Shown one piece after another: positions 47,535 through 64,000 of a DNA stretch of 64,000 nt. A program made the position numbers and the translations under genes. Source of the DNA: a virus; the IMG/VR virus record IMGVR_UViG_3300026097_000980, positions 1 through 64,000 of that record; one strand, written 5' to 3'. Positions within the stretch are counted from its first letter, which is position 1. Each line of letters starts with the position of its first letter. Under the pieces are notes generated by a model that did no database searches, was not told where the DNA came from, and saw nothing but the letters and a program-made list of their open reading frames with translations.

Positions 47535-48094
47535 TATTTCTCCGTTATAATATCAAAATTCACAGCGCACCTAGGGTTTTTTATAGGTATACCTCCACTA
47601 TGTAATGTTAATCCGTCAAAAATTACCAATCTTCCTTTTTTAGGAGAGACTGTTTTTATAATTTGTTCTTTTTTGTTATAAAACACTGTGTCACCTTCGG
47701 AATCATTCACATAGTATAACACAACTGTATGATCGAAGTCAAAATCTGTATGAGGATCCATTGTCGTTCTTTCGGTTTCATATGGCATTATAAGGAAAAT
47801 TCTTCCTAGGATTATTTGTTGTAATGATTTATTAATTTTATTGCAAGCGATTCTAGGCAATATTGAAAAATTTTCAAGATGCTGGGATTGTTGTGTGCTT
47901 GACTTCAAAACATGGGTGAAGCTTATAGGATCGCGATCTTCTTCTTTTCCGGTTGATTCATATTTTACCTTAAAATCTATTGTAGGAAAAATTTCCCCTT
48001 CGTCGGATCTTCCAAAAACCTGCATACAAAAATAGTTTTGGAGATATTCGGGAACAGCGTCATCAAAAACTTTTATTTTATCAAAACTATTCAC
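47534..48094 (-). CDS. 2OG-Fe(II) oxygenase
   Basis: PHTD, LYYVNDSEGDT, FDG..LH, R..VNF. Confidence 0.8.
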   Translation of the reverse strand: MNSFDKIKVFDDAVPEYLQNYFCMQVFGRSDEGEIFPTIDFKVKYESTGKEEDRDPISFTHVLKSSTQQSQHLENFSILPRIACNKINKSLQQIILGRIFLIMPYETERTTMDPHTDFDFDHTVVLYYVNDSEGDTVFYNKKEQIIKTVSPKKGRLVIFDGLTLHSGGIPIKNPRCAVNFDIITEK

Positions 48095-48473
48095 GGTTTA
48101 ATGCGTCCCAAACTTTTTCTTTTTGTAAAAGTTCTTGTTCGAGCTTACGATATTCGTCTCCAATTTTTTTAAGTTGGTTCCATTTTTCTTCTAATTCCGG
48201 ACTAGGTTGCAGTATGTTCAATCTTTCTTCTACCCGAGCCATAAACTCCTTAAGGCTTTGCTCTCCCATTTTGATATCACCGTCGTTGTGGATCTTGATA
48301 TCACCTTGACTTACATCAATACCTGGATTGAAAGTGTTGAAATCGATGTTGCTGAAATCAAAACTGTAGTCGTCGGACACCGTAATGGTATCAACCGAGT
48401 CTACAGCAAACGTGTCTGTTGTATATTGTATTCCTGACACATCCAGTGTTATTGTATTATCATCGTCGTTCAT
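48087..48473 (-). CDS. Hypothetical protein
   Basis: AGAGG RBS; acidic N-terminus, coiled-coil C-terminus. Confidence 0.6.
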   Translation of the reverse strand: MNDDDNTITLDVSGIQYTTDTFAVDSVDTITVSDDYSFDFSNIDFNTFNPGIDVSQGDIKIHNDGDIKMGEQSLKEFMARVEERLNILQPSPELEEKWNQLKKIGDEYRKLEQELLQKEKVWDALNRE

Positions 48474-48488
48474 GTTCTACCTCTTGTA

Positions 48489-48603
48489 TGGTGTGGTCGG
48501 TAGGGTTCGAACCTACAAGTATCTGAGGCTACACCTTCGATACCGTCCCGCATCCTACAGTGTAGGAATTTTGGAGCTTTGCCAAAAATTTGCTCACGAC
48601 CAC
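48489..48603 (-). tRNA. Non-canonical tRNA-like RNA (115 nt, encoded CCA, anticodon not assignable)
   Basis: Acceptor GUGGUCG/CGACCAC + ACCA; D arm AGC..UGG..GCU; T arm GUAGG-UUCGAAC-CCUAC; aberrant anticodon arm; long variable arm. Confidence 0.8.
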
Positions 48604-48649
48604 ATACTATATTATAGCCTTTTTACAGTTCAGTCAACTAACTCCTGAT

Positions 48650-48655
48650 TAAATA
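48650..48655 (+). promoter_or_regulatory. Late-promoter-like TAAATA heading the radical-SAM island
   Basis: Same hexamer as before structural genes; 21 nt before ATG 48677. Confidence 0.55.
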
Positions 48656-48676
48656 CTTTGTTCGCAAAGGTGTCCA

Positions 48677-49381
48677 ATGAGAATAGTAGCTTTCGGTGAT
48701 AGTTTTACAAATGGCCTTATAAAATTACCTAAAAGATACACACAAGAAGAATCTCATCAAAACAGTTTTGTAAACAAAATGTTTCAGTCTAGTAAAATAT
48801 TTACTGATTATTCAAATTTAGCCGACAACGGTTGTGGTAATAGACAGATAGCATCTAAGATTTATAAATGTTTACTTGAAAAGAAAATCAGCAAGAACGA
48901 TTTTGTATTTATTGGATGGTCTAGTTTGACTAGAACAGCATTATGGGACAACGAATATTATAAAACTCCTGATAACAATGTTGTTGATTATAAACAGTTG
49001 ATTTATGATACAGAATCTAGTATACTTAGTACACACATGATACTGAAATTACAAGGAATCCGACACTGCATGATACAAGCGTTTCATGATTATTCAAGCC
49101 AGACAGACATAAAATATCTGCTAGAAAAGAATATCAATTTCCCGTGTTGGATAAATTTTCAAAAAAACAATAACACCCTTATGGATATATGTATGTTGAG
49201 ATATTTGAGCGAGGCAAAGTTCAAAGATATCAAAAATCATCATAAAGAAAAATATGTTCAGCATACAAAATACCTTGCAGAATGTTATCATCCTAACGAT
49301 GCAGGGCATAGATTAATAGCAGAAACACTGAGACCCATTGCGGAAATATATGCTACTACAGATAAAAGTTTAGAGTATTAA
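48677..49381 (+). CDS. SGNH/GDSL-like protein
   Basis: FGDSFT, NLA..G.GN, HPN..GH. Confidence 0.75.
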   Translation: MRIVAFGDSFTNGLIKLPKRYTQEESHQNSFVNKMFQSSKIFTDYSNLADNGCGNRQIASKIYKCLLEKKISKNDFVFIGWSSLTRTALWDNEYYKTPDNNVVDYKQLIYDTESSILSTHMILKLQGIRHCMIQAFHDYSSQTDIKYLLEKNINFPCWINFQKNNNTLMDICMLRYLSEAKFKDIKNHHKEKYVQHTKYLAECYHPNDAGHRLIAETLRPIAEIYATTDKSLEY

Positions 49382-49389
49382 GGATAGAA

Positions 49390-51381
49390 ATGCAAAGATA
49401 CAAAAAAGAAATTGCCAGAGTAACATTAGTCGAACCCGAATCCGGCGACTACTTAGATCTTTACTTCAGGCTTTATGACATTTCTATCACAAACAAATGG
49501 ATTCATAATTTTAAACAACTAAAATCAGGACCGCATAGCTTCAGAGAAAAAAATGTATTTCTAAGGTCTTACAATCGTAGCCTATTGGATGATATTAACG
49601 AGTGTATAGAAAAAATTAATAACTTTTATGACAGACCTTTAGAATCTATAAACAATCTAACCGAAGAATCGTTAAACTATCTACACGAATGTTATGAAAT
49701 TTACGGTAAAAGACTAAATGAACATTTAGAAAAAAGATGGTGGGATAGCGCATACAAAAAGATTTCCGTAAACGACCCGGAAGCAATGGTCTGGCCTGGT
49801 AGATCATTTAACGAAGATATGCATTTTTCGTTTATCAAATTAAATGAACTCATTCATAAATCGGAATTTGCCGACGAAAGACGTTCTCCAGGAGCAATTG
49901 TTCTCGGCAGTTTCAATAAAAGAACAGACCATATTCTAGAAAGAGACGATTATTTAACAATAACTCCTTTTCTGAATTTCGGAGATTTCTGTCTTGGTTA
50001 CAATACTCTCGGAAAAAATCTTCAACACATAATATTAGATAATGACGAAGATGCTGTGGCCAGAAATGCAATTGTTCCGCAACAAACATGGTCCGATGAG
50101 TTTTATATCCATCTAAAGTCCGACGAAACAAAACCTGATCATCTAATAGGTTATAAAGAAATGTGGGACAATTTAAAAATCAAAGGATTCCAGTTCGGCA
50201 ACTTTATTGCTAATAAAGAAGGATATATCAAACTAGGGGAAATGATCCCTGAGCAAAGAGCGAAACTCTACAAAAACGATCACACTCTTATTGATTTTAA
50301 AAAATACACAGACCTACAAGATATAACATTGATTTCAACCGATGAATACAAAACAGGAGTTCGTTTCCCGGAGTTCAAGAAACCTTATAAGAAACAAGGA
50401 AAAGAGATCGTAGCTGTAGATACTGATAATGTTGTAATGATTACATGGATATTAAATAATATTTGCACCTACAGTTGTAGATATTGTCCTCCAAATTTAC
50501 ACAACGGAAAAAACTACAGATACGAGTGGGAAGATATAGAGCCATTTGTGTCCCATTTACTTAAATTTTATCGAGGAAAGAACATTGAATTTAATTTAAG
50601 TGGTGGCGAACCGACACTTAGTCCCTTTTTTCCTATGCTGGTTAAAAAAATTTACGATAGCGGAGCGTATGTAGGTATAACCACAAATCTCGCAAGAAGT
50701 ACTAGATTTATAAAAGATAATTTTAAATATTTGAAATTTGCGTGTTGTAGCTTCCATCCTTATTACGAATTTCAAGACGAAAAATATAAAGAGTTTTTAG
50801 AGAAAATTAAGGAATGTGCAAACCATTGCCATACAACAGTCCGGGTTATGATGGACCCGTTACACTGGGATCAAACAGTGGAATTTGTAGAAACTCTAAA
50901 AAAATTAAAGTGCTGTAAAGTAGAAGTAGTATATATTGATAATCAGTACGGCAGTACACACAAACAGCTGATTGACATAAGTTATACGCCAGCCCAAATA
51001 GAATATATCAAAAACTTCGAACCTTTTCAAAAATTTGATGCAAAATGGAGTAAATCTGAATTATGGTCGCCAATGCCTACGAAAGGTGATGTAATTTTTT
51101 CCGACGGTTCTAGAGAAGAGTTGGGAACTGCACAAAAATATATTAATAACGGTCAGGCAAACTTTTTCAATTACTCGTGCGATATAGGTAAGAATAGTTT
51201 GTTTATTGGCCCAAATGGTGAGGTCAGAAAAGGAAATTGTTTGGTCGGAGGAAAAATTGGAACTGTTGAGAATTGGAGAGGAATAGACTGGAACGATCTC
51301 AAGCAATCAATAATTTGTAATTCATTGTGCTGCCATTGCGGCGCAGATGTTGTAATCTCCAAAAGGAAACGCAATGCGTAA
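49390..51381 (+). CDS. Radical SAM protein with ~340-aa N-terminal extra domain
   Basis: CTYSCRYC, SGGEPT, SFH, C-terminal CNSLCCHC.AD. Confidence 0.85.
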   Translation: MQRYKKEIARVTLVEPESGDYLDLYFRLYDISITNKWIHNFKQLKSGPHSFREKNVFLRSYNRSLLDDINECIEKINNFYDRPLESINNLTEESLNYLHECYEIYGKRLNEHLEKRWWDSAYKKISVNDPEAMVWPGRSFNEDMHFSFIKLNELIHKSEFADERRSPGAIVLGSFNKRTDHILERDDYLTITPFLNFGDFCLGYNTLGKNLQHIILDNDEDAVARNAIVPQQTWSDEFYIHLKSDETKPDHLIGYKEMWDNLKIKGFQFGNFIANKEGYIKLGEMIPEQRAKLYKNDHTLIDFKKYTDLQDITLISTDEYKTGVRFPEFKKPYKKQGKEIVAVDTDNVVMITWILNNICTYSCRYCPPNLHNGKNYRYEWEDIEPFVSHLLKFYRGKNIEFNLSGGEPTLSPFFPMLVKKIYDSGAYVGITTNLARSTRFIKDNFKYLKFACCSFHPYYEFQDEKYKEFLEKIKECANHCHTTVRVMMDPLHWDQTVEFVETLKKLKCCKVEVVYIDNQYGSTHKQLIDISYTPAQIEYIKNFEPFQKFDAKWSKSELWSPMPTKGDVIFSDGSREELGTAQKYINNGQANFFNYSCDIGKNSLFIGPNGEVRKGNCLVGGKIGTVENWRGIDWNDLKQSIICNSLCCHCGADVVISKRKRNA

Positions 51382-52078
51382 AATTTTAAATTTTGGTTGT
51401 AGTCATACCAACGGTGCAGAGATTGACGAACCGTGGTCGGGAGAAAGACCCGATCTAGCTTATGGCGCTGTTCTTTCAAAGATGATAGATTACAAAGTCG
51501 AGCAGATATGCGGGAATGGTTGGAGTAACCAATGGATAATTAAAAATGCGTTCAATGCGTGTTTAGAATACATTGATAATAAAGATAAGCCGTTTATTCT
51601 CGTCGGATGGACATCAGTTGAACGAATGCCGTTGCAGTTTGCTGGTCAAGGCACAGTTTATCATGCAACAACAAATTTACCCCCAGAACCTAAATATTAT
51701 CCTGTTAGGAATTATGAAAGAATACACAGTACACTTTGGGGTTCTTCTGTTAACAAACCTGAAATGACTGAAATGCGATTATCTAATATATTAGGGTTCC
51801 AATCTTGGTTGAAAGAACATAATTTTCCATTTTTATTTTTCTGGGCCGTTAATAGTGCTGATACTAAAGTGCTAGAAAAATATAGCATGTGTTTTGATCC
51901 TTGTAGATTTTATGAACCAATTCAACACGATGAGTCTTACTGGAGATACTATCTTAATAATTACTATGATAAGTCTAAAAGATGGGCAAAACATGCACCT
52001 GCGGAGTTCCATAGGCACTGGGCACATAAGCTTTATACGTATATTTGCAAACACAAGTTGCTGGATCTAAATGTTTAG
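51374..52078 (+). CDS. SGNH/GDSL-like protein
   Basis: FGCSHT, G.SN, VGWTS..R, C-terminal H..H. Confidence 0.65.
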   Translation: MRKILNFGCSHTNGAEIDEPWSGERPDLAYGAVLSKMIDYKVEQICGNGWSNQWIIKNAFNACLEYIDNKDKPFILVGWTSVERMPLQFAGQGTVYHATTNLPPEPKYYPVRNYERIHSTLWGSSVNKPEMTEMRLSNILGFQSWLKEHNFPFLFFWAVNSADTKVLEKYSMCFDPCRFYEPIQHDESYWRYYLNNYYDKSKRWAKHAPAEFHRHWAHKLYTYICKHKLLDLNV

Positions 52079-53567
52079 CATATCGAAAGGAACATTAAAT
52101 TTAGATCATCCTGCTTGTAAAAGCCAGATTGATTTCTTTGCGGGACAAAATTTTAACAAAGTGAATATTGATAACTTTTGTTCAGGCCACTACGATCATA
52201 GAATTGCCAAGCACTTTTATTTTTCAGTCCACCCGGCAGATCTCCCAATTACAGTTCTTGTATACGGAGAACAAATCCTAAATATACATCCCGGAACTTC
52301 TAGGGTGCTTGCATATTATCTATCTGATAAGAAAAAAATTCCTGCAATATTTTTACAGGTTGGTAGCATGAAAGAATTAGAATTTGCAGAAAATGTTCAA
52401 TCTATTACTGAAAAAAACGAACTTACCTTGGTCAATCAAAACGACAAGCCGAATAAACATTTTTGGCAAATAAATGTTATTGACCAAGAATACTATAAAA
52501 AGATCGAAAACGAAAAACAATTATCAAAAAAGTTTAAAGAGTTTTTTTATAGTTGTTTAGATCAAAACTCTGTAGATACTTTAAAAAAAGAATATCTAAA
52601 AAATAATCAGAAAAAATTCTGGAAACTGTGTTCACAAATTGCTAGAGAAAATTTTAACAAAAAGTTAGCAATTAAACCTCAAAGAACCGGAGCGTGGCAA
52701 TACAACAGTGATTTTCATTGGAATGTATTTTTTAAAAACTATGATGTTTTTTTGGTAGAGATGTTACCGAATGCAATGAGTGAATTCATAGCCCATCCTA
52801 ATGAGATAGAAAGTCAAAGTCGCTGGATTAAAAAATACAAAGATACTGAAAGAAAATTTCCTGAAATTTTTATAAACTACGAGCTAGACGAGTTTGTCAA
52901 AGATTACACAGAAATTTACGATTGTTTAAAATCGGAAAATCATAAAATAGCCGATTTGGTAGACAACAAGCTCTGGATGAACTGTAAAGGATATGAATAT
53001 ATAAAAACCATACAAAGTGTTTATAAACATGGTGGCATTAATTATAGTTCTAGCATACTAACAAACATCTGCGGAGAACGAAACTTTAAGTATCATCCTG
53101 GAAGGCATTTATCGTTTGCCAAGCGATTTATAGGACAACCGGATATTCATTTTCTAACAATTAAAAAGCAGGATCGCGAATGGTTAGATCAGTATGACAA
53201 AGTTAAAATTATAACCCAAATAGAAACCAAGAACCAAATTTTAGAAAACATGCCTAAAGAAATGACAGATGTCAGCACATGGCTTCAGGGAACTTTTCCT
53301 GTATATACGTGGCCGTTTGTGAACGGAGAAATTAAACTGCCTACTACTGAATGGGGAGATTTAAAAGATGACTGCGGCTATACTGTGATAACTAAATCTG
53401 GAAAAGAAGAAAATATGAAAGTGTTTACTGAATACGCAAAAATTTTAAAAAACACTGATTTACAGAATCTGTATAAAGGAAAAAAGAAAAACCATAAAAA
53501 GCTAAATGAAAGATATCTGGGGTTCCTGTTGAACAATCAAGAAGGTGACGAATTTGAAAAAGGTTAA
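52071..53567 (+). CDS. Hypothetical protein with two HPG-R motifs (ParB/Srx-like?)
   Basis: IHPGTSR and YHPGRH. Confidence 0.55.
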   Translation: MFSISKGTLNLDHPACKSQIDFFAGQNFNKVNIDNFCSGHYDHRIAKHFYFSVHPADLPITVLVYGEQILNIHPGTSRVLAYYLSDKKKIPAIFLQVGSMKELEFAENVQSITEKNELTLVNQNDKPNKHFWQINVIDQEYYKKIENEKQLSKKFKEFFYSCLDQNSVDTLKKEYLKNNQKKFWKLCSQIARENFNKKLAIKPQRTGAWQYNSDFHWNVFFKNYDVFLVEMLPNAMSEFIAHPNEIESQSRWIKKYKDTERKFPEIFINYELDEFVKDYTEIYDCLKSENHKIADLVDNKLWMNCKGYEYIKTIQSVYKHGGINYSSSILTNICGERNFKYHPGRHLSFAKRFIGQPDIHFLTIKKQDREWLDQYDKVKIITQIETKNQILENMPKEMTDVSTWLQGTFPVYTWPFVNGEIKLPTTEWGDLKDDCGYTVITKSGKEENMKVFTEYAKILKNTDLQNLYKGKKKNHKKLNERYLGFLLNNQEGDEFEKG

Positions 53568-54519
53568 GTTTGAAAGGGTTAACTTAGAATTAGTCGGCGG
53601 CTGCAATTATACCTGCCAGATGTGTCCTCAAAGTACCGGCAGAGGAAAAGAGTGGACTAAAAAACTGCCTTTCGAATTATTCGAAAATATTTTAGATCAA
53701 TTAGACGGTAATCCATTAATTGGACTACACGGTTCAGGAGAACCTACATTGATTAAAGATCTTCCTAGATACGTTGAAATCTGTAAAAAAAGAAATTATA
53801 AAGTGTTCATTAATACCAACGGTTTTAAATTGCACGGAAAATTTATGGAAGACGTAATTAATGCAGGAATAGATTGGATAAGGTTTAGTGTTGTAGGATA
53901 TAATTCTGAGACTTATAAAGATTGGATGGCGGTAGACAACTTTAATAAAATTGTAGAAAACACCATAGAGACTTCCGAGTATATCAAAATAGTTAATTCG
54001 CACTGCAAACTTTTAAGTTATCATTTAATACTTGACTCTAACAACATAGATTATGAGATTGATCAATATAGAAAAAACTATATAGAGAAAACCGGTACAC
54101 ACGGGTACATATGGAAAATGCATAACTGGAGTGGTAATTACCAGCCGTTATATTTAAGAGATCCGGCAAAGCGTAAAACCTGCGGCAGACCGTGGGCACC
54201 TGATATCACAATCAGGGCCGGAGGCATAGATAAGTTACACGGTGCTGTTGTTCCTTGTTGTCAAACAATGGGTCCTCCTAACGAAGCAAAAAGTGTTCTC
54301 GGACACGTTGAAACTGAAACAATTGACGAAATATGGAACGGACAATTATATCAAGAACTGCGTGATGCACATTCCAAAGGTAATTTTGATTCAATTGACT
54401 ATTGTAAAGACTGCGATCTTTTATATCAAGAAGATGAAAGTTTAATATGGAGTAATGCACCGGGAGCTTTTGACGGCAAGTTAATAGGAACTGACGTAAA
54501 TCTAAAGGATTTTATATGA
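53545..54519 (+). CDS. Radical SAM/SPASM protein (start may be TTG 53554)
   Basis: CNYTCQMC, GSGEPT, CGRPW..VPCC..CKDC. Confidence 0.88.
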   Translation: MTNLKKVKFERVNLELVGGCNYTCQMCPQSTGRGKEWTKKLPFELFENILDQLDGNPLIGLHGSGEPTLIKDLPRYVEICKKRNYKVFINTNGFKLHGKFMEDVINAGIDWIRFSVVGYNSETYKDWMAVDNFNKIVENTIETSEYIKIVNSHCKLLSYHLILDSNNIDYEIDQYRKNYIEKTGTHGYIWKMHNWSGNYQPLYLRDPAKRKTCGRPWAPDITIRAGGIDKLHGAVVPCCQTMGPPNEAKSVLGHVETETIDEIWNGQLYQELRDAHSKGNFDSIDYCKDCDLLYQEDESLIWSNAPGAFDGKLIGTDVNLKDFI

Positions 54520-55517
54520 CAGATTTTTCAAAAATTCCTTTTGAAGATATAATCAAAGTCGGACAGAGAACATTGCTAGATCGTCCATTATTTACTGTTA
54601 GTTGGATTCTTGGTAGATTCTGCAACTACAATTGTAGTTACTGCTGGCCATATGCCAGAAGCTCAACTCCGGATCATTTCGATCTCGATGTTTATCTAAA
54701 AGGAATTGACGAAATTAAACGGCAAGCGAGAAAGAACGGATTCACTGAATTTCACTTTAGTTTTAGTGGAGGTGAGCCCACTGCATACAAACAGTTTAAT
54801 AAAGTGCTAAAACATTATTCTGAAGATGCAGACCCTGAATACCAAAGCTTGCACATGACCACAAACCTTTCTCCTGCAAAAAAATGGTGGGAGAAGTTTG
54901 TAACAGACACATATAAATTACAGAGAAAAAGTATAACAGCAAGTTTTCATGCCGAACATGCAGATGAAACAGAGTTCGGTGATAAATGTCTTATGCTTAT
55001 GGATGCAGGAGTATTTGTAACTATAAATCAAGTTATGGTTCCTGAACTGTTTGACGAATATTATGAAAGATGCCAACGGTTTTTTGCTAGAGGAATCAAT
55101 GTAACGTTAAAGCCTCAAAGCGATCCAACAGCAAGTTATATAGTAGGCGGATATACAGAATATCAGAGAAAGATACTGCAAGAAAATTTTCCGCAAAAAA
55201 TTCCATCGAAATATAAGAGTGATATACCTCTATTACAAATCGAGTTAGAAGATAAATTTTCTAATAAGTTTTACTTAGATCAAGCAGAACGATTTAACGC
55301 TTTTGATTTTAATAAATTCCAAGGTTGGTCTTGTAATTCTGGTTATCAAAGCTGTATAATTAGAAGTAATGAAGTAAAAAGAAGCTATTCATGTCACGAT
55401 GAATCGTTAGGAACACTGACAGACGGATTTGAGTTGTTTGCTAATTCAAAAGTTTGTATTACTCCGTCGTGTGTTAGCAGTGCAGATAGTAAAATACCTA
55501 AGGTTAAACATGTATAA
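54516..55517 (+). CDS. Radical SAM protein
   Basis: CNYNCSYC, SGGEPT, SFH, NKFQGWSC. Confidence 0.88.
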   Translation: MTDFSKIPFEDIIKVGQRTLLDRPLFTVSWILGRFCNYNCSYCWPYARSSTPDHFDLDVYLKGIDEIKRQARKNGFTEFHFSFSGGEPTAYKQFNKVLKHYSEDADPEYQSLHMTTNLSPAKKWWEKFVTDTYKLQRKSITASFHAEHADETEFGDKCLMLMDAGVFVTINQVMVPELFDEYYERCQRFFARGINVTLKPQSDPTASYIVGGYTEYQRKILQENFPQKIPSKYKSDIPLLQIELEDKFSNKFYLDQAERFNAFDFNKFQGWSCNSGYQSCIIRSNEVKRSYSCHDESLGTLTDGFELFANSKVCITPSCVSSADSKIPKVKHV

Positions 55518-56499
55518 ACTAAATGAAATTAAAGAAATACATTTAGAAACAACATCTAAGTGTCAAGCAAGATGTCCTATGTGTCCTCGCCGTTTAAATG
55601 GAGGATCTATTAATCCATTAATAACGCTAGATGAAATTTATCTGGACGATTTTAAAAAATGGTTTCCGGTACATTTTCTTCAAAATTTAGACCGACTGTT
55701 TATGTGTGGAAATCTAGGTGATCCGGTTGTTGCTCAAGATACACTTGAAATTTTTCAATACTTAAGAGAGATTAATCCGGATATTCAATTGAGCATGCAT
55801 ACTAACGGAAGCGCAAGAACCAAAGACTGGTGGCACAAATTAGCACTTGCTGATGTTGAAGTAACCTTTGGCATCGACGGGCTAGAGGATACACACAGTC
55901 TTTACCGCATAAACACAGACTGGGCTACTATTATTAAGAATGCACAATCTTTCATTGATGCAGGCGGGAAAGCAAATTGGCACATGTTAGTGTTTAAACA
56001 TAACGAACATCAGATTGAAAACTGCAAGCAATTAAGTTTAGAGTATGGATTCAAATACTTTAGTATAAAACACACCAGTAGGTTTAAAGAAAATAAGTTG
56101 CACGTGATAGACGATGCTGGTAAAACTGCTTATAAAATTTATCCTACCCAAAAAAGTCTAGACATGATACCTAAGGTAACACAATTCTATACCGATCAAA
56201 GTCCGTGTATTAAGTGTAAGGCTAAACAACAAAAACAAATTTATGTTTCAGCAAACGGAAATATAGCTCCGTGTTGTTGGCTAGATATGCAATACAAATT
56301 ACATATACAAGATACCAGGATAGACTATATGGATAAAATAGAACAGTTTCCTAACCTTAGAGAAATGTCAATTGAAGATATATTTTCCTCTGATTATTTT
56401 AAAAGCATTGAAAAAACTTGGGCAGATGATCCGTTGTTAGAATGTTCAAAACAATGCGGTAGTTTCGATAAATTACAGGAGCAATTCGTTGAAAGTTGA
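55510..56499 (+). CDS. Radical SAM/SPASM-like protein (start MYKLNE)
   Basis: CQARCPMC, GNLGDP, TNGS, PCC, CSKQC. Confidence 0.88.
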   Translation: MYKLNEIKEIHLETTSKCQARCPMCPRRLNGGSINPLITLDEIYLDDFKKWFPVHFLQNLDRLFMCGNLGDPVVAQDTLEIFQYLREINPDIQLSMHTNGSARTKDWWHKLALADVEVTFGIDGLEDTHSLYRINTDWATIIKNAQSFIDAGGKANWHMLVFKHNEHQIENCKQLSLEYGFKYFSIKHTSRFKENKLHVIDDAGKTAYKIYPTQKSLDMIPKVTQFYTDQSPCIKCKAKQQKQIYVSANGNIAPCCWLDMQYKLHIQDTRIDYMDKIEQFPNLREMSIEDIFSSDYFKSIEKTWADDPLLECSKQCGSFDKLQEQFVES

Positions 56500-57094
56500 T
56501 ATACAAGATGTTCTGTTTTGGATGGACGCTATTCGTAACAGCGATGATCGTTATCGCACACTTGAAAGTTTTTGGAAAGGGCAGGTTAATAGTAAAATTT
56601 GGCTGATTGAAAATCTGCAGAAATTTCAAGATCAGAAATGGGAACACATTGTTATTCACGGTGGCTGGAACGGTGTATTAGCCAGCCTTATTTTCAACAG
56701 CGGCATAGAAGTAGATAGAATAACCAGTGTTGATATAGACCCCGGCTGTGAAGAAACAGCATACACTATTAACAAGAGATACGAAATGACGGGCAGATTT
56801 CGTGCGGTAACCGCTGATATGTGCAAATACTCTGAACCTGCTGATGTTATCATTAACACCAGCTGTGAACATATTACTCAACCACAGTATTATGATTGGC
56901 TACACAACCAAAACGATGACAGTCTTTATGTTTTACAAAGTAATAACTATTTTGATTTGAATGAGCATATAAACTGTAGTGAAGATTTAGTACAGTTTGT
57001 TCAAAAGTCCAAACTTCGGGTTGTATTTTCAGATAGATTACAACTGCCTAAATACGACCGTTACATGATTATAGGAAAGAAAAATGACAGATAA
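56489..57094 (+). CDS. Class I SAM-dependent methyltransferase-like protein
   Basis: IHGGWNG, SVDID, ADM, INTSCEH. Confidence 0.7.
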   Translation: MKVDIQDVLFWMDAIRNSDDRYRTLESFWKGQVNSKIWLIENLQKFQDQKWEHIVIHGGWNGVLASLIFNSGIEVDRITSVDIDPGCEETAYTINKRYEMTGRFRAVTADMCKYSEPADVIINTSCEHITQPQYYDWLHNQNDDSLYVLQSNNYFDLNEHINCSEDLVQFVQKSKLRVVFSDRLQLPKYDRYMIIGKKNDR

Positions 57095-58496
57095 ATTTTG
57101 GTATAACCCTAAGGACACTGAGTTAGGAAAATATCAAAGAGAAATAGAAAGTGTAGCCGGAACACCTTCATTTTGTATATTGCCGTGGATACATTTTGCA
57201 ACCCGTCCGAATGGTGATATGAGATTATGCTGTTCTGCAAATGCAAGTGGAGCAGGCAATGATCATGAAGTAGGACTTGTAAGAATGGAACATGGCCGCC
57301 CTGCTAACTTCGGGCGAGAAACTCCTATGGAAGCATGGAATAATGAATACATGCGCAGTGTGCGCACCACAATGCTTAACGGAGAAATACCTAACAGTTG
57401 CCGCAAATGTTTTGAAGAAGAAAAAGTGGGTGTTGTTAGCAAACGTATATGGGAAACTGGAACTTGGCACAGAGATGGGGTAGATATTCCAGAACTTATT
57501 AGACAAACAACCGAAGACGGCATCGTTCCTGAAGAACTGGTATATTTAGATCTACGACTAGGGCATACCTGCAATATTAAATGTGTTATGTGTTCACCTC
57601 ATGACAGTTCTCGCTGGGTTAAAGATTGGGAACAACTTATTCCAGTTTTACAAGTTGACAATGTAAAACAACAGATGCAGTGGGATCGATCCGAGTTTAA
57701 CAACAAGTGGCACGAGAAAGATACATTTTGGGAAGAAATGTATCGTCAAATACCAAATCTAAAACAGGTATATTTTGCCGGCGGTGAACCTCTAATGATC
57801 AAAGAACACAAAGAGTTCATTGAAGAAATAGTACGTCAGGGATATCAAGACAAGATTTTGTTAAGATATAACTCCAATGGACTATTAGTAGATGAAGATT
57901 TAATTAAGTTATGGAGCAAGTTTAAAAAGGTTAAGTTTGCAGTAAGTATGGATGCAGTTTATGAAAGAGATGAATATATACGCTATCCTACAGATTGGAA
58001 TACTGTTGAAAAAACTCTGAGATTGTTAGACGATACTCCGGATAATATACAAACAAGTTTAGCAACAGCAATACAAATATTCAATGTAAAACACCTACCT
58101 GACTTTATGAAGTGGAAGGTAGAAAGCGGATTTAAAAAACTTAATCTAGGTAACGTACCTGGCGGAGTACAAATGGGCGGCGGCTTAGTAAACATGCATT
58201 TATTGTACATTCCTACATTCTTAAGCATACAAATACTACCAAAAGAAGACAAGCAAGAAGTTCGAGAACTGTATATGGATTTTAAAGACTGGCTCTGGAA
58301 AAACTATAGACAGGATGACGATTTCTGGAAAGTCAATCCTTATGGATGGCGTAGATGGGAAGCAGTAATGAACCATATGGATGCAACTGACAATAGCGAT
58401 CAACTACCAGGATTTAAAGAATATGTGAATAAATTAGATGCTATCCGCGGACTGAATGCAAAATCAGTGTTTCCGGAAATTGCTCATCTTCTCTAA
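57084..58496 (+). CDS. Radical SAM protein with N-terminal twitch/SPASM-like domain
   Basis: CILPW..LCC..CRKC precedes CNIKCVMC, AGGEPL. Confidence 0.88.
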   Translation: MTDKFWYNPKDTELGKYQREIESVAGTPSFCILPWIHFATRPNGDMRLCCSANASGAGNDHEVGLVRMEHGRPANFGRETPMEAWNNEYMRSVRTTMLNGEIPNSCRKCFEEEKVGVVSKRIWETGTWHRDGVDIPELIRQTTEDGIVPEELVYLDLRLGHTCNIKCVMCSPHDSSRWVKDWEQLIPVLQVDNVKQQMQWDRSEFNNKWHEKDTFWEEMYRQIPNLKQVYFAGGEPLMIKEHKEFIEEIVRQGYQDKILLRYNSNGLLVDEDLIKLWSKFKKVKFAVSMDAVYERDEYIRYPTDWNTVEKTLRLLDDTPDNIQTSLATAIQIFNVKHLPDFMKWKVESGFKKLNLGNVPGGVQMGGGLVNMHLLYIPTFLSIQILPKEDKQEVRELYMDFKDWLWKNYRQDDDFWKVNPYGWRRWEAVMNHMDATDNSDQLPGFKEYVNKLDAIRGLNAKSVFPEIAHLL

Positions 58497-59542
58497 ACAA
58501 GCGTTTGAAAAACTTCCCAATCTTTTGCCTTTGGCACACACATTCCGCAACCGCATCTATCATTAGGACAAACAATTGTTTTATCTTTGTGTTCATGTGC
58601 ATACTGTAAGATTGCGTCAGTGTCACTGAGATTTCCTATGGGGCCCCGACCTTCCGAGTGCAGTGCTTTACAAGTTTGGTGATGATAAACTTCGCCAGTC
58701 TGCTGATCTATATGTAAAAAGTAACGATTAACACTGCAAAACCACCCTTTGAAATGAGTATCGATATGGGTAATGTCTTGCCACTGGCCGTTTTTTATAC
58801 CTTTCATACACCTACCTCCACAGCAGGTTCGTCCTAATTCAGTGCCCTGCTTATCAGTTTCATTGGGCGCCGAGATTCCTAGGTAATTAAAATACCATAC
58901 TTGCTGTTCTGGAGAGTAATCATGGCTGGTTCTGCGAGGTGTACCGTCGGTGTCTAAAAACCATCCTTGTCTTGATATGTTACCGTCACCGATCGGTCGG
59001 GGCTGATGCTTTATACCTAGTTCTTTTAACTCGTTACATACCTCTACACATTCATCAAAATAATCAACATGCATCATTACGTTGACTTGTAACCAAATAC
59101 CTTTTTGATATAATAGTCTTATATTTTCCAAAACCTGTTTCTTCAGTTTATCATCTGCTTCGGCATGATAACTCACAGTTACGCCTTCAAATATTTCTGC
59201 AATTCTTTCTGTGTTCTTCGGATGCCACGCTCCGTTAGTAGTTAAACTTAACCTAAACCTGTCTTCGTTATTCTTAATGTATTCAGCAAAATCCCAAAAC
59301 GCAGGATTAACGGTGGGCTCACCTCCAGTAAAATTAATATTCACTAAATGACTATATATCTTAGTGTATTCTTTTACGAACTCAAATGTTTTCATTAGTG
59401 TTTCGTAAGGCTGTGGCTTACTATAATTATCGTGTCTTGTCGCTTCGCAGTATGAGCAATCATAATTACAACGTCTTCCCGTGTCCCAGGTAACCATAAT
59501 TCTTTCTGGATTAGTCAAATCAACCGCATCTATCTTAATCAT
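58493..59542 (-). CDS. Radical SAM protein (start MIKIDAV)
   Basis: CNYDCSYC, TGGEPT, SYH, FKGWFC, CPNDRCGCGMC. Confidence 0.88.
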   Translation of the reverse strand: MIKIDAVDLTNPERIMVTWDTGRRCNYDCSYCEATRHDNYSKPQPYETLMKTFEFVKEYTKIYSHLVNINFTGGEPTVNPAFWDFAEYIKNNEDRFRLSLTTNGAWHPKNTERIAEIFEGVTVSYHAEADDKLKKQVLENIRLLYQKGIWLQVNVMMHVDYFDECVEVCNELKELGIKHQPRPIGDGNISRQGWFLDTDGTPRRTSHDYSPEQQVWYFNYLGISAPNETDKQGTELGRTCCGGRCMKGIKNGQWQDITHIDTHFKGWFCSVNRYFLHIDQQTGEVYHHQTCKALHSEGRGPIGNLSDTDAILQYAHEHKDKTIVCPNDRCGCGMCVPKAKDWEVFQTLV

Positions 59543-60425
59543 GGGTTTCCTTTGAAAGTGGAATATCGGCCGCACATGTGCACCAATTTCTAGTGCAAAC
59601 TATCCATTCTCTAGGTGGCTCAAAACTGCCGTTATAAATATTTCCCAAGCTACCGCCCACTCTGCAAGTAGCGCGATGTACTTCGCCATCCCAGTTAATC
59701 ATCAAGCTTTCAATACCAGCAGAGCACTTCCACCCATTAAATCGATTTAGATGATTTTTAATTATATCGTTGGCATGATAAGTTTTACCCGTATCGTCTA
59801 CACAGTTAGGACGAACTGTAGAGTTTGTAGAAAGTATCCACTCTAAATCATTGCCTTCGTATCTTAAGTCGTCAAACGTGTCGTGATCGCCTTGTGTCCA
59901 CCGTATTCTTCTAACAGCCACGGGTATGTTTTCTTCGTCAAGTTCTTCGTATGCTCGTTTAACAAGATCCATGTGTTCATGATGAGCCATTAAATTAACC
60001 TGAATAGGTTTACCGAACCATTTGCCTACCATGATAATGTTTTGTAAAGAACGTCTCCAGAGATTGTTATCGAAGTGTAAACTGAATACATAATGATTAA
60101 CAGGTTGTTCGCAATACCATCTGCCATCACGAGTTCCGTTTGTTGTTATGTTTATCCAGTCAACTCTTTGATTTAAGTGATCTAACAGTTCTTCGATATT
60201 AGGGTGAACACAAGGCTCTCCACCAGTAAGGCTAACGCGAATAGGTTTGTCTAATTCACAGAGCGCATCAACGGCATCGGTCAACAATTTAATATTTGTG
60301 TGAGGAGAAACATTGTCGTGAATTTCCGAAGGACAGTATGCACAGTCTAAGTTACAACGTTTTCCAATATTCCATTCTACTTTGATAGAATTTTGATGAT
60401 CATAGATACTGGTAAGGCTACGCAT
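59535..60425 (-). CDS. Radical SAM protein
   Basis: CNLDCAYC, TGGEPC, SLH, FNGWKC, CTRNWCTCAAD. Confidence 0.88.
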   Translation of the reverse strand: MRSLTSIYDHQNSIKVEWNIGKRCNLDCAYCPSEIHDNVSPHTNIKLLTDAVDALCELDKPIRVSLTGGEPCVHPNIEELLDHLNQRVDWINITTNGTRDGRWYCEQPVNHYVFSLHFDNNLWRRSLQNIIMVGKWFGKPIQVNLMAHHEHMDLVKRAYEELDEENIPVAVRRIRWTQGDHDTFDDLRYEGNDLEWILSTNSTVRPNCVDDTGKTYHANDIIKNHLNRFNGWKCSAGIESLMINWDGEVHRATCRVGGSLGNIYNGSFEPPREWIVCTRNWCTCAADIPLSKETHD

Positions 60426-61686
60426 ATTTTTTAAACTCTGGATTGATACTAAAAAAATCTTGATTTCGGGTTACATCTAATTTAAGATTAAAATCTATGC
60501 AATCTTGCCAATATTCACTTAAATCATTTGCCTGTAAAAAGTTTATATTATCTTGTATTTGTTGAAGTGTTACCTGCTCTAATAGTTTATGTTGTTGTAC
60601 CAAAGGATATTCTAATACTTCAGTTTTCATTTCCTCTAATCTGTCTACAATTCTTTGTTTTAGTTCTTGTGGTAATGTTTGAGCACTTAATGATCTAGGA
60701 TAATTTACTCGGTGAGAGTAAAACACAATACCCATTTCGTTTATAAAGTAATCGATAACTTTATCAATCTGCATAATATTGTTTGATTGCACAGTAAATG
60801 CACCTACCACTCTACTAACATTAGGAAACGATTTAAATACCTTTATGTTTTCTTCTATTTCCGAAAACTTGCCATTGCCTCTAATATATTCATAAACATC
60901 GTGTATTCCGTCTATGCTTACGTTTACAGCAATGCTTTTAAACTTAGGCCAATAATCGTGTATTGTGCGTCCACCTTTGATGCCTAGTGTTGTTCCGTTA
61001 GTAGCGTATTTTAATTCTATCTGATCGCCATACTGTGCCAGTTTATCGAGAATCTTATAATGATATGGATCCATTAAAGGCTCCCCTCCTGCAAATTCTA
61101 CTCGTCTAAAATACGGCAATAGTTTTTCGAACGAGTCCCACCAGTTATCTGAGTTATCAAAAGGCCCAATATATTGACCCGGAGTGTCAACTAATGCATC
61201 TACTGTGGGAATAAGATAGTTATTTTCTTTTTCGTAATGACTTCTTATCGCTCCCCAATCTTTCCAGCTGGTACTATCGAGAGGGTTACACATGCGACAT
61301 TTTAAATTGCAAAGATTATTAAGCTTAATTTCCATAGTAGGAAATTCAAACGGCATTGTGTAATCGTCGTTTAAAGCGTTTAGTGCGTCTGGGTATAAGT
61401 TGATACGTGCTTCGGGTATAACGCCCGCTGTGTGACGCTGTCGTAAGCTTTCGACACCCTGATCCTCTAGGTCAAAGCACGGTTTACATACATCTGGACG
61501 TTCGCCATTTAGTACCTGCCTGCGAACTTCTCGCATAGTTTCGTTATTCCATGCTTGTTCTAAACTTTCTTTTTGGATCCAGCCGACGGGTTGGCTACGG
61601 CAGCATACTTTGATAGCACCGTCTTCTCGTGTAGCAAGACCTGTAAAAGGATGCATGCAGAATGTGCAACTATCTTTTATATTCAC
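60418..61686 (-). CDS. Radical SAM protein with N-terminal twitch/SPASM-like domain
   Basis: CMHPF..VCC..CKPC precedes CNLKCRMC, AGGEPL; TAAATA 61691-61696. Confidence 0.88.
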   Translation of the reverse strand: MNIKDSCTFCMHPFTGLATREDGAIKVCCRSQPVGWIQKESLEQAWNNETMREVRRQVLNGERPDVCKPCFDLEDQGVESLRQRHTAGVIPEARINLYPDALNALNDDYTMPFEFPTMEIKLNNLCNLKCRMCNPLDSTSWKDWGAIRSHYEKENNYLIPTVDALVDTPGQYIGPFDNSDNWWDSFEKLLPYFRRVEFAGGEPLMDPYHYKILDKLAQYGDQIELKYATNGTTLGIKGGRTIHDYWPKFKSIAVNVSIDGIHDVYEYIRGNGKFSEIEENIKVFKSFPNVSRVVGAFTVQSNNIMQIDKVIDYFINEMGIVFYSHRVNYPRSLSAQTLPQELKQRIVDRLEEMKTEVLEYPLVQQHKLLEQVTLQQIQDNINFLQANDLSEYWQDCIDFNLKLDVTRNQDFFSINPEFKKYA

Positions 61687-61724
61687 AAATTATTTAGTAC
61701 CTGTATTGTTAGATAAGTACGTTT

Positions 61725-62402
61725 ATGATAACACCAGCTGGCTATGTTTGCAACAAAGAAAAGATTGAAAAATTATGCACTTTGTTAGACAATCTGGATT
61801 TTCCACTCTGTTTAAACGAACCATCAGGAAACTTTTTTTATGATCCTTGGATTATTAAAGAAGAATTTAAAAATACAATTTTTAATGAAGTACTGTCGAC
61901 ACTAGAAACTACAACAGGACAAGCAAGAATTTTAAAATTAGAAGCAGGTAGATGTTATAATGTCCATGCAGATATTGATGATAGGTATCATCTAAATTTA
62001 TCTGGAGAAGTTAGTTATCTTGTAGATGTTGATAATGAGCAAATGTTTAGAATGTATACAGACGGAATTTGGTATCAAATGAATGCAGGTAAGAGACACA
62101 GTGCTATAAATTTCGGGAGGGGATATAGGTATCAACTTGTGGTGCGTCATGTATTACATAATCCTGTGTTAAACGATCCTGTCAATGTAAAGATAATTTC
62201 GCATGAACCTACTACAGATGATACTAGATATGTATTTGATAACTATATTAGTTCCTGGTTAAATGAAAGTTGTAAACAACAAAAGATAATGAACTTCGAA
62301 CCTAATGTTAACGAAGTAAAATTCAGTACGGAAAGAAATCACATTGATAGTCTTAAAAAAATTTTACCAGAAACCTTGGAGATGATTTTATATGATCAAT
62401 AA
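61725..62402 (+). CDS. 2OG-Fe(II) oxygenase (Asp/Asn hydroxylase-like)
   Basis: HAD.DDRYH...HSA.N.G...R; TAAGTA 61714-61719. Confidence 0.7.
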   Translation: MITPAGYVCNKEKIEKLCTLLDNLDFPLCLNEPSGNFFYDPWIIKEEFKNTIFNEVLSTLETTTGQARILKLEAGRCYNVHADIDDRYHLNLSGEVSYLVDVDNEQMFRMYTDGIWYQMNAGKRHSAINFGRGYRYQLVVRHVLHNPVLNDPVNVKIISHEPTTDDTRYVFDNYISSWLNESCKQQKIMNFEPNVNEVKFSTERNHIDSLKKILPETLEMILYDQ

Positions 62403-63081
62403 TACAGGCTGGGAGTATGTTCGAAAGTATGTTGACAAAGGTGATAGATTTCAACTTAGCTCGACAAATGTTCTCTATACACCTACAATAAATCCGGAAA
62501 AAACTATGATGTGTATGCATTATATAGTAGACACAAACTATATGATCGGAAGTTGTGTTCCTAGAACAGATGAAATGCTACAATATTGGTTTGAAAGAGA
62601 ATTAGGATATCTCGAATTATTTCAGGGAAAGTCCTGGTGTCCTAACATTTACGATGTAGATTATGAAAACAAAAAAATATTAATAGAATATAATAAAGAG
62701 AGTTTAAATTTTCCAGTCTATGTCGAGGAAAGATCTTTGGATAAAGAATATCCTAATTGGAAAGCAGATCTCTTTAATATTATTAATGAGGTTTATCAAT
62801 TAGGATATTATAAAGCATCAATTTATCCACACTGTTTCTTTTATACAAACGAAGGAAAAATGAAAATGATTGACTACTATGCAACTGTTCCAAGAGACGA
62901 TTCTCTTATTCACAAAAGCATTATCGAACCTATTATAGGAGTCGACTCTGAGCAACGATTTATAGAAGTTAAAAACGGAGAATATTTTGAAATGGCAAAT
63001 CACTTTAAAAACTCTCTTAAAACCTGGATCAAGTGGCCCGGAGATCCTCTTCCGGAATTTTGTGAAAAGATTTTTCAGTAA
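62392..63081 (+). CDS. Protein-kinase-like fold protein (atypical)
   Basis: FERE..YL, P.IYD, ILIEY, KMIDYY in DFG-like position; catalytic-loop Asp not evident. Confidence 0.5.
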   Translation: MINNTGWEYVRKYVDKGDRFQLSSTNVLYTPTINPEKTMMCMHYIVDTNYMIGSCVPRTDEMLQYWFERELGYLELFQGKSWCPNIYDVDYENKKILIEYNKESLNFPVYVEERSLDKEYPNWKADLFNIINEVYQLGYYKASIYPHCFFYTNEGKMKMIDYYATVPRDDSLIHKSIIEPIIGVDSEQRFIEVKNGEYFEMANHFKNSLKTWIKWPGDPLPEFCEKIFQ

Positions 63082-63105
63082 GTTAACGATAAGGGTGTGA
63101 GTATA

Positions 63106-63651
63106 ATGCAAAATTATGTTAATGCTGATTTTTTTAAATTTGAATATGATTGGTCAGGCCTGCTTGATAGTATAAAAGATTTTGAGGGTGTTCCAAATAC
63201 TCCAGATCCAAGTATTTGGAAAATGGAAATTCCTGCTTACAGCGAAATTAAAAAAACTTGGGAAGAAGCTAATTATCCTGATAGTCATATAAAATGGATT
63301 AATTTTTACCCCGGGCAACATTACACAGAAGAACTAGATAAGTTATTGTGCAATCACTTTAACATAGGATATAGAAGATCGTGGATAAGCAAAATAGAAC
63401 CAGGTTATAGTGCTCCGTGGCACTGGGACGTAGAAGACGATCCGGAAGACTACGATGGACCTTTACGTTTGAGTATTTTTATAAATGATTGTGAACCCGG
63501 ACATATTTTCATATTAGGCAAAGAAGATGTTTTTTATAATATGAAATCAGGAGATGGAATTTTTTGGAAAAGATTTAACGAATATCATATTGGCATGAAT
63601 GCCGGCTTAACTTCTAAATATATGTATCATTTAAAAGCAAAAATTATTTAA
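63106..63651 (+). CDS. 2OG-Fe(II) oxygenase-like protein
   Basis: PG..APWHWD...H.G.N.G...K. Confidence 0.7.
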   Translation: MQNYVNADFFKFEYDWSGLLDSIKDFEGVPNTPDPSIWKMEIPAYSEIKKTWEEANYPDSHIKWINFYPGQHYTEELDKLLCNHFNIGYRRSWISKIEPGYSAPWHWDVEDDPEDYDGPLRLSIFINDCEPGHIFILGKEDVFYNMKSGDGIFWKRFNEYHIGMNAGLTSKYMYHLKAKII

Positions 63652-64000
63652 CACTTCTCCATTTTTTATATCTTACATCGTTTATTTCATCTACAAATAT
63701 TAGAGGAATATCAAAATCCGCCTTCAAAATCCAATCTATAGTTTGCACAATTTTGATAGGATCTATTTTTACATCTTCTTCAGGCCCGTACCTTTGAAAT
63801 CCGCTGGTAATAATATGTGTGGTTTTAATTTTCTCTGAAGCAAGACTCCAACTGGTATTTCGTATGTCCAGTTTTTCTTGATGAGTTACAGGATCTACCC
63901 ACGCAAATTCTTCAAACTCTAATACACTGCCGATTGTTATGATATGCCCTTGCGTCCATACGTCAGCAACATCTCGTATTACTCGTTCTTGAAACCCATA
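63644..64000 (-). CDS. SDR-like protein, 5'-partial
   Basis: Hand-translated ...GHIITIGS...HQEK...IKTTHII.SG...IVQTIDWIL...; HxxxK where YxxxK is expected. Confidence 0.45.
   Translation of the reverse strand, partial: YGFQERVIRDVADVWTQGHIITIGSVLEFEEFAWVDPVTHQEKLDIRNTSWSLASEKIKTTHIITSGFQRYGPEEDVKIDPIKIVQTIDWILKADFDIPLIFVDEINDVRYKKWRSVK

Follow-up and report, generated by a model that had tools for sequence, protein, structure and literature searches.

A conserved family of phage tRNA-like RNAs with a sealed UAG/UAA arm, predicted to mimic tRNA-Leu without decoding

Phage-encoded stable RNAs with the build of a tRNA have been recorded in phages T5 and T4. RNA1 of T5 is entered in GenBank (AY543070) as a misc_RNA, 'tRNA-like stable RNA with unknown functions', and species 1 RNA of T4 (rnaC) is a small stable RNA whose role is recorded as unknown (PMC3014915). 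Additionally, YrlA and other bacterial Y RNAs contain a tRNA-like module with D and T arms and occur in some phages, where mimicry is their presumed mode of action (PMC4201824). Here, an RNA gene of 115 nt is described that lies on the minus strand of a 64,000-nt stretch of DNA from a large uncultured phage (positions 1 to 64,000 of IMG/VR virus record IMGVR_UViG_3300026097_000980; hereafter the window), which is part of a 155.5-kb record with a CheckV completeness of 42%. The RNA has the acceptor stem, D arm, T arm and CCA of a tRNA, with two long arms in between, and its family adds to the phage tRNA-like stable RNAs known from T4 and T5. It is read here as a functional tRNA-Leu mimic that probably acts through its tRNA shape and not by decoding, to which a probability of roughly 80% is given. 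No paper on this family was found in full-text literature searches; a 2023 catalogue of viral structured RNAs treats tRNA-like candidates in general terms only (PMC10690425), and a 2026 preprint on bacterial tRNA mimics apparently concerns other RNAs.

One layout is common to all members of the family, namely an acceptor stem of 7 bp followed by U8, a short D stem whose loop contains GG, a T arm, the discriminator base A73 and nearly always an encoded CCA. In the window RNA the acceptor stem GUGGUCG/CGACCAC consists of seven Watson-Crick pairs with G3-C70 as pair 3-70, U8 is present, and the D stem, whose loop contains GG, can be extended to GAGC/GCUC, i.e. (G)AGC/GCU(C). Its minimum-energy fold contains exactly the acceptor stem, the D arm, the two middle arms and the T arm. 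Across the family, arm 1 follows directly after the D stem and comprises 9-11 bp with strong covariation; its caps are not conserved, with GNRA tetraloops in the commonest group, CYCAUAG, CUAG and U5 in further relatives and ACU in the window. Arm 2 starts with an outer helix of about 5 bp, continues through an internal loop into an inner helix of 3-5 bp and is capped by a triloop N-U-A; one nucleotide separates its end from the T stem. This topology is that of a class II tRNA whose anticodon arm is a capped rod. With class II tRNA-Leu the RNA shares the 7-bp acceptor stem, A73, CCA, U8, the D loop RAA..GG.A.A, the T loop and the presence of two arms between D and T arms. It differs in having no 5-bp stem with a 7-nt loop, in the capped arm of 9-11 bp after the D arm, and in a second arm of about 11 bp with an internal loop, at whose tip the letters of a leucine anticodon are sealed. 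A sequence-only reading of the window had noted the 7-bp acceptor stem, A73, CCA, the D-loop GG, the T-loop UUCGAAC, the hairpin UCCUAC-ACU-GUAGGA, a long arm GUAUC...GAUAC and a promoter TTGACT-17-TAATAT, and had stated that G3-U70 is absent; this description was found to be correct in every detail, with all features on the minus strand, and the minimum-energy fold agrees with both arms.

T5 RNA1 and T4 species 1 RNA are the nearest published counterparts. T5 RNA1 resembles the mimic in being phage-encoded among or near tRNA genes, in its acceptor-like stem, T arm and Leu-type D loop (CCG-GAAUUGGUAGAC-GGG), in a long insert that takes the place of the anticodon stem-loop, and in a long hairpin at the variable-arm position. 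Unlike the mimic, it is 144 nt long, has no encoded CCA, belongs to a series of RNA genes without an annotated promoter immediately upstream, and has arms that are unrelated in sequence and no UAG/UAA tip. In T4 species 1 RNA, which is encoded in the tRNA region, the 3′ 95 nt form an acceptor stem and a T arm (CCGGG-UUCGAAU-CCCGG) that is preceded by a 10-bp hairpin, and an anticodon loop is lacking. A 5′ extension of about 45 nt, the lack of a Leu-type D loop and the lack of an encoded CCA set it apart. The covariance model of the family (R1, see below) scored T5 RNA1 at 16.6 bits (partial), T5 RNA2 at 19 bits and T4 species 1 RNA at 18.7 bits. Due to the fact that these scores are no better than those of unrelated, ordinary tRNAs, the resemblance of T5 RNA1 and T4 rnaC to the mimic is a likeness of kind only and homology is not claimed. 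Compared with the T4 and T5 RNAs the mimic is the cleaner case, being short, single-copy, widespread and equipped with its own promoter and an encoded CCA.

The first full-length relatives were found with nhmmer in loci fetched via a nearby thyX gene, and a 24-nt motif of T arm and acceptor stem was present in at least 119 stretches of viral contigs. The motif scan and the thyX-anchored loci yielded at least 126 copies and at least 52 distinct sequences with lengths of 99-115 nt. Among the matches listed, 67 members were distinct, and the tip of arm 2 was tabulated for these. The covariance model R1 was built from the family and used to align 55 members; the middle region, where RNAalifold on a MAFFT alignment was inadequate, was handled with a hand-given structure and the covariance model. 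The window copy scored 73.9 bits (E ~1e-16). In the alignment 97.7% of the cells were paired, and 15 pairs varied on both sides (121 cells). None of 500 shuffles matched the observed covariation, whose score of 0.259 compares with at most 0.057 in slid-partner controls. Among the 67 distinct members A73 is invariant and CCA is encoded in all but about four; the T loop of the relatives is UUCGAAN or UUCAAAU.

Since the first alignment set had been picked via the 3′ motif, a second set was assembled independently of the RNA sequence from 80 loci fetched with an alignment of the 128-aa protein encoded downstream. The RNA was carried by 37 of these loci, always upstream of the protein gene and on the same strand. 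In this synteny-only set the acceptor stem shows compensation from G1-C72 to A-U, from U2-A71 to C-G and, three times, from U5-A68 to C-G, one T-stem pair has a compensatory change, and both middle arms covary too. Compensatory changes were found in all helices of the homologues, and the middle region does not decay at random in them. Marine-plankton and saltern contigs match the window over the mimic block only, with flanks diverging at 48488-48490, and a 113-nt marine contig that covers 48490-48603 has pairs 37-51, 38-50 and 63-83 altered on both sides. The marine and saltern contigs together with the compensatory changes argue that the element is neither a chance structure nor a decaying gene, and the comparative data indicate a conserved RNA family that is kept under selection across many related phages.

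Near-identical copies of the locus (window positions 48380-48720) were also present in marine-plankton, marine and saltern metagenomes (runs X2, X4, X7 and X9), and the summed contig depth over the 3′ half of the mimic reached 680, with many different contigs contributing; most of the relatives in IMG/VR are presumably from lakes. The RNA occurs once in each of four genomes scanned and is absent from a complete 524-kb relative genome. A blastn search of cultured phages with the locus and one relative gave no homologue, only T-arm matches to tRNA-Tyr genes. Across 185,579 prokaryote species, each represented by one genome, the 24-nt 3′ motif was never matched exactly, so that no host tRNA of identical sequence was found. 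One member (L241:2080-2190, plus strand) has C2-G71 and G3-U70 in its acceptor stem and ends in ACAA, not ACCA; G3-U70 is the alanine identity pair.

The promoter is conserved in the relatives. Among 58 distinct upstream sequences of relatives the -10 hexamer is TATAAT in 36 and TATACT in 19, one or the other ends 6 nt before G1 in 53, and a TTGnnn -35 element at a 17-nt spacer is present in 50. This geometry holds even for the 99-nt forms located within tRNA arrays. Because of the fixed distance of the -10 element, the 5′ end is predicted to be set by transcription initiation at or next to G1 and not by RNase P. The predicted promoter is of the sigma-70 type and should be readable by E. coli polymerase.

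Read in the anticodon frame, the tip triplets of arm 2 in 65 distinct members are UAG (54 members) or UAA (11 members); the two 99-nt forms have AAG and ACG instead. Pair 32-36 is C-G in 53 cases, U-A in 11 and U-G once, in the window, where the GUA triloop closed by this U-G pair reads UAG. The tip is shut by 3-5 pairs in every one of the 65; 30 of them have a base other than U at position 33 and 22 a pyrimidine at position 37, and the would-be 5-bp anticodon stem has at most three pairs in 49. Moreover, changes at the tip keep the closed form and break the 7-nt loop, as in GUC-UUA-GAC becoming GAC-UUA-GUC or GCU-GUA-AGC. For the window, the open-loop drawing is UG-UAG-CC, with G33 and C37, on a stem with two of five pairs, and decoding is therefore not credible. 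These patterns support the view that the family cannot read codons, as a canonical anticodon loop is needed by no member and cannot be formed by most. Either arm 2 would descend from the anticodon arm of a tRNA-Leu into which arm 1 was inserted, or U-A-R has been kept for another reason. Outside the window, the same phage encodes a tRNA of 77 nt (G000:C1:81754-81830, minus strand) in which the anticodon UAG and a D loop of the Leu type are combined with a short variable loop; such a class-I-shaped tRNA-Leu(UAG) is a possible ancestor type of the mimic.

The remainder of the RNA also points to leucine. The D arm occurs in two family forms, AGU-GGAAUUGGCAGA-CCU, which parallels the tRNA-Leu form GUG-GAAUUGGUAGA-CAC, and AGC-AAAUUGGCAAA-GCU, the type of the window, which parallels GUC-AAAUUGGUAAA-GGC of T4 tRNA-Leu. 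In a sample of 79 distinct phage tRNAs the Leu-type D-loop motif was carried by 6 of the 7 tRNA-Leu but by 2 of the remaining 72. When R1 was applied to real tRNAs, the highest scores included those of T4 tRNA-Leu with 34.9 bits, the tRNA-Leu of L104 with 33.9 bits and T5 tRNA-Leu with 31.5 bits; T5 tRNA-His reached 34.5 bits, owed to its acceptor stem. In E. coli, leucine identity is made up of A73, A15-U48, G18G19, A20a and D-loop/T-loop contacts and not of the anticodon or the long arm, and tRNA-Leu without anticodon arm and variable arm is still charged (PMC9976931). The set used by leucyl-tRNA synthetase (LeuRS) is complete in the window and is conserved across the family (U8-A14, A15-U48, G18G19, A20a, A73, U54, U55, C56 and A58), and the family T loop UUCGAAN and the invariant A73 match that of E. 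coli. As all anticodon-independent determinants are present, charging by LeuRS is plausible, and from these determinants the chance that the mimic is leucylated is put at about even. The sequence-only proposal of a non-decoding tRNA mimic with Leu-like identity has therewith held up in its Leu-type D loop, its constant A73, the LeuRS determinants and the lack of a canonical anticodon loop.

Existing classes and search tools do not accommodate the RNA. An undetermined or pseudogene call had been expected from tRNA finders; with default settings ARAGORN called neither a tRNA nor a tmRNA (transfer-messenger RNA) at the window locus, and relaxed settings gave forced pseudo-calls only. The 99-nt forms alone among the members receive a forced ARAGORN call, as tRNA-Pro. 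A search of Rfam with the window RNA gave no match to any family even at E<=10, and the best relative reached 26.5 bits with the Rfam tRNA model (RF00005), for which the threshold is 29. For annotation this means that tRNA finders and Rfam miss the whole family. Several known classes were considered and rejected. Of the features of a canonical tRNA, the 7-bp acceptor stem, the discriminator, the UUCRANY T loop and a D arm with G18G19 are present and conserved across the family, but the 5-bp stem with 7-nt loop, U33 and the purine at position 37 are missing, arm 1 of the window being a 6-bp helix with a 3-nt loop. The tRNA-like domain of tmRNA likewise combines acceptor stem, T arm and CCA with the lack of an anticodon, and the synthetase that charges tmRNA does not read the anticodon. 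The mimic differs in having no G3-U70 (except in L241), no coding part, no pseudoknots and a full D stem; in the window the pair is G3-C70, the RNA has 115 nt and no tag reading frame, and the tmRNA mode of ARAGORN returned a nonsense call only, at a relaxed threshold. YrlA ends on the anticodon side, has a closed acceptor-like stem and works with Ro60. The mimic ends at the acceptor stem with CCA, and no TROVE match was obtained in five mimic-carrying genomes, while control genomes did match. A tRNA with a group I or II intron was rejected as well: self-splicing introns of these groups have about 200 nt or more, whereas the inserts have about 28 nt, and their excision leaves no canonical loop in the window. 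A search for intron-containing or split tRNAs with ARAGORN -i gave low-score pseudo-calls only.

The best explanation of these observations as a whole is a trans-acting, non-decoding tRNA-Leu mimic, for which, with all the following steps included, the odds are regarded as evenly balanced. Host RNA polymerase would start at G1 from the sigma-70-type promoter, so that no RNase P cut would be needed, and the 3′ side would be cut back by host nucleases as far as the encoded CCA. The RNA would fold into the tRNA L with a normal acceptor/T-arm stack and an elbow of D loop and T loop, the arm at the anticodon position forming a long capped helix and the second arm a sealed triloop with U34-A35-R36. 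It could thereby offer tRNA-handling proteins every feature that they grip, including the anticodon-independent LeuRS determinants, and would presumably be stable, 3′-processed and bound by LeuRS. The sealed tip fits an RNA that would resemble tRNA-Leu(UAG/UAA) to some factor while staying off the ribosome. Tentatively, the RNA may thus serve the phage as a bait or pseudo-substrate for a host reader of tRNA-Leu, e.g. a defence nuclease or toxin, without disturbing translation. As the sealed U34-A35-R36 tip is explained neither by a pure carrier nor by a 5′ stabiliser, this role is ranked first, and the idea of a decoy may gain a little from the conservation of the sealed UAG/UAA tip. A more specific form, in which the leucylated mimic, uncleavable in its sealed arm, sequesters a so far undescribed immune enzyme of the host that is directed against tRNA-Leu or against charged tRNA ends in general, is speculative and considered unlikely; in a bolder variant still, the charged mimic would be the leucine donor of a modification pathway of the phage. 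Against tRNA-cutting immunity, phages are known to use tRNAs of their own (PMC10264068, PMC11555353). A decoy, if real, would be an RNA-only strategy beyond replacement tRNAs and tRNA repair against such immunity, and a sponge for an immune enzyme would be an RNA-only anti-defence factor derived from a disabled tRNA. Because the conserved parts point to a LeuRS/tRNA-Leu frame and a sealed UAG/UAA tip, charging, binding partners and counter-defence become testable.

Several observations weigh against the trans-acting mimic. About half of the related loci and the complete 524-kb genome lack the RNA, which is hence dispensable. In the window, no terminator is present in the 15 nt between CCA and the start of the downstream open reading frame (ORF), which allows a role in cis. 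Compared with the relatives, the D loop of the window is longer by three U residues ahead of G18G19, and the placement of G18G19 reportedly matters for charging by E. coli LeuRS; in the D loop of a marine variant, four U residues of the window loop are missing. For elongation factor Tu (EF-Tu), the pairs G49-C65, U50-A64 and A51-U63 of the invariant T stem add up to +0.7 kcal/mol relative to the reference, A51-U63 being the weakest pair for this factor (PMC3239215, Table 2). Finally, in the literature searched, neither a bacterial defence directed at tRNA-Leu, nor a tRNA-Leu-specific nuclease, was found. A report of a decoy RNA of this kind was likewise not found there. The T stem of the mimic is also 0.6-0.9 kcal/mol weaker for EF-Tu than those of the two tRNA-Leu of the phage itself, a weak hint that may fit a role away from the ribosome.

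Of the rival explanations, a dedicated leucyl carrier fares best, although it is judged rather unlikely. Charged by LeuRS and kept off the ribosome by the lack of an anticodon, the RNA would supply leucine to a phage or host transferase for a reaction outside the ribosome, with a peptide, a protein, the cell wall or DNA as acceptor, perhaps within the neighbouring island of radical S-adenosylmethionine (SAM) enzymes. The intact LeuRS determinants and the weak 51-63 pair suit this role, and in the Mom system of phage Mu DNA is modified with Gly-tRNA (PMC13219725). In the commonest lineage the RNA lies between a divergent radical-SAM gene, which starts 63 nt upstream at most loci, and a run of genes on its own strand. 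The divergent gene at two loci (e.g. L095:657-1385, plus strand) encodes a 242-aa truncated AMP-binding enzyme (PF00501 positions 170-377), a suggestive but rare arrangement. In the window a divergent island (48677-64000) comprises at least eight radical-SAM genes, four of them with a SPASM match, together with GDSL-like, DUF6071 and family-less genes. The island content varies between relatives, and so does the immediate neighbour, which is GDSL-like in the window and, at other loci, the truncated AMP-binding enzyme, a metallophosphatase or a 2-oxoglutarate (2OG) oxygenase. The radical-SAM gene that adjoins the RNA in relatives lies, in the window, beyond about 6 kb of other genes. The 99-nt subfamily lies within tRNA arrays at a distance of about 16 kb or more from radical-SAM genes, with about 16 kb to the nearest one in a complete 364-kb genome. 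The link to the radical-SAM island holds in one lineage only. Scans of the neighbours with Pfam, NCBIfam and PHROGs identified radical SAM/SPASM, GDSL-like, DUF6071, 2OG oxygenase, MazG and ThyX proteins, but no FemAB-, GNAT- or LanB-type enzyme and none known to use aminoacyl-tRNA. In five mimic-carrying genomes scanned whole, one of them complete, no L/F-transferase, CCA-adding enzyme or TROVE/Ro60 protein was found; PTH2 was present in one of the five, 28 kb from the RNA. The earlier suggestion of an aminoacyl donor for the divergent enzyme island is not upheld by the separation, the changing neighbour, the distant 99-nt forms and the lack of an aminoacyl-tRNA user, and a carrier would leave the conserved UAG/UAA tip unexplained.

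An unlikely alternative is a 5′ leader acting in cis, in which the acceptor stem and the 5′ triphosphate would shield an early downstream mRNA, or a 3′ cut would mature it. In its favour are the terminator-free gap of 15 nt in the window and, in relatives, a constant set of genes downstream on the strand of the RNA. In the commonest lineage this run contains ATAAGTA, an Hc1-like (histone H1-like) gene of 64 aa (PF07432, E 2.5e-14), a homologue of the 128-aa ORF, sometimes a 2OG oxygenase gene, and thyX. Loci that have the 128-aa homologue but not the mimic also lack Hc1 and ThyX nearby; the block is one syntenic module whose genes are missing together, and the co-occurrence does not discriminate between function and shared descent. 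Against a leader, a stabilising hairpin does not require an invariant A73, CCA, T loop, G18G19 and Leu-type D loop, the separate late-promoter-like ATAAGTA stands in relatives between the mimic and the next gene, the 99-nt forms are followed by tRNA genes and not by an mRNA, and the Hc1-like gene lies 82 kb away in the phage of the window, at whose mimic site it is absent together with ATAAGTA. The conserved ATAAGTA is located 10-20 nt past CCA (e.g. L008:1759-1800) and is followed by AAGGAAA and the Hc1-like gene. The 128-aa protein matched viral hypothetical proteins only in a protein atlas; a close-relative search with it gave nothing, whereas the alignment-based search did find homologues.

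It is improbable that the RNA is a true decoding tRNA-Leu(UAG/UAA), with arm 1 as an extra domain that is tolerated or removed and arm 2 opening to a 7-nt loop. Of 67 members, 65 carry a leucine anticodon at the tip, and the AAG of one further member also stands for leucine; 11 of 65 can be drawn as GCCGU-CUUAGAC-ACAGC with U33, A37 and four of five stem pairs, and the 77-nt tRNA(UAG) with its Leu-type D loop could be the ancestor. However, the closed form is kept while the open one is broken (U31-A37 to A31-U37; C32-G36 to U32-A36), and about half of the common subgroup, like the window, has only two of five 'anticodon stem' pairs. Compensatory changes maintain arm 1 as expected for part of the mature RNA, the arm falls short of the length of a group I or II intron, and the Rfam tRNA model scores the members below threshold. 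A decaying tRNA pseudogene or chance cloverleaf, to which the rejection of the locus by standard tRNA finders might point, is extremely improbable given at least 119 contigs from lakes, sea and salterns, compensation in each of the helices and a conserved promoter whose distance is fixed.

Table 1. Positions of the tRNA-Leu mimic, its parts and adjacent features in the window.
Feature	Position	Strand	Basis or remark
Putative tRNA-Leu mimic, G1 to CCA, 115 nt	48489..48603	-	fold and family model R1
-35 hexamer TTGACT of the mimic promoter	48632..48637	-	sequence, relatives
-10 hexamer TAATAT, 17-nt spacer; TATAAT at 48611-48616 overlaps	48609..48614	-	sequence
Acceptor stem, 5′ strand GUGGUCG (RNA 1-7), pairs with 48493-48499	48597..48603	-	
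D arm (RNA 10-29), stem AGC/GCU, loop AAAUUUUUGGCAAA, tRNA-Leu type	48575..48594	-	
Arm 1 (RNA 30-57), anticodon-arm position; base CC/GG, then UCCUAC-ACU-GUAGGA	48547..48574	-	
Arm 2 (RNA 60-86), variable-arm position; GGUAUC/GAUACU, GA/CA internal loop, AGGU/GCCU, GUA triloop	48518..48544	-	
T arm GUAGG-UUCGAAC-CCUAC (RNA 88-104)	48500..48516	-	
Acceptor stem, 3′ strand CGACCAC, discriminator A 48492, CCA 48491-48489	48489..48499	-	
Downstream ORF, 128 aa, no known family	48087..48473	-	start 15 nt past CCA; AAGAGG 3-8 nt past CCA

Elsewhere in the same record ARAGORN called 11 ordinary tRNAs and a tmRNA. The latter is circularly permuted (two-piece) with the tag ANDETFALAA and is located outside the window (G000:C1:112017-112419, minus strand). 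In a relative, a 93-nt gene with a long extra arm, called tRNA-Ile(UAU), is located in the tRNA array (L120:3715-3807, minus strand). Beside the tRNA cluster of the record, also outside the window, a weak tRNA-Lys(UUU)-like gene (G000:C1:87149-87228, minus strand) is missed by default ARAGORN; its T arm GTAGGTTCGAGTCCTAC resembles that of the mimic, and with its poor stems it may be a pseudogene.

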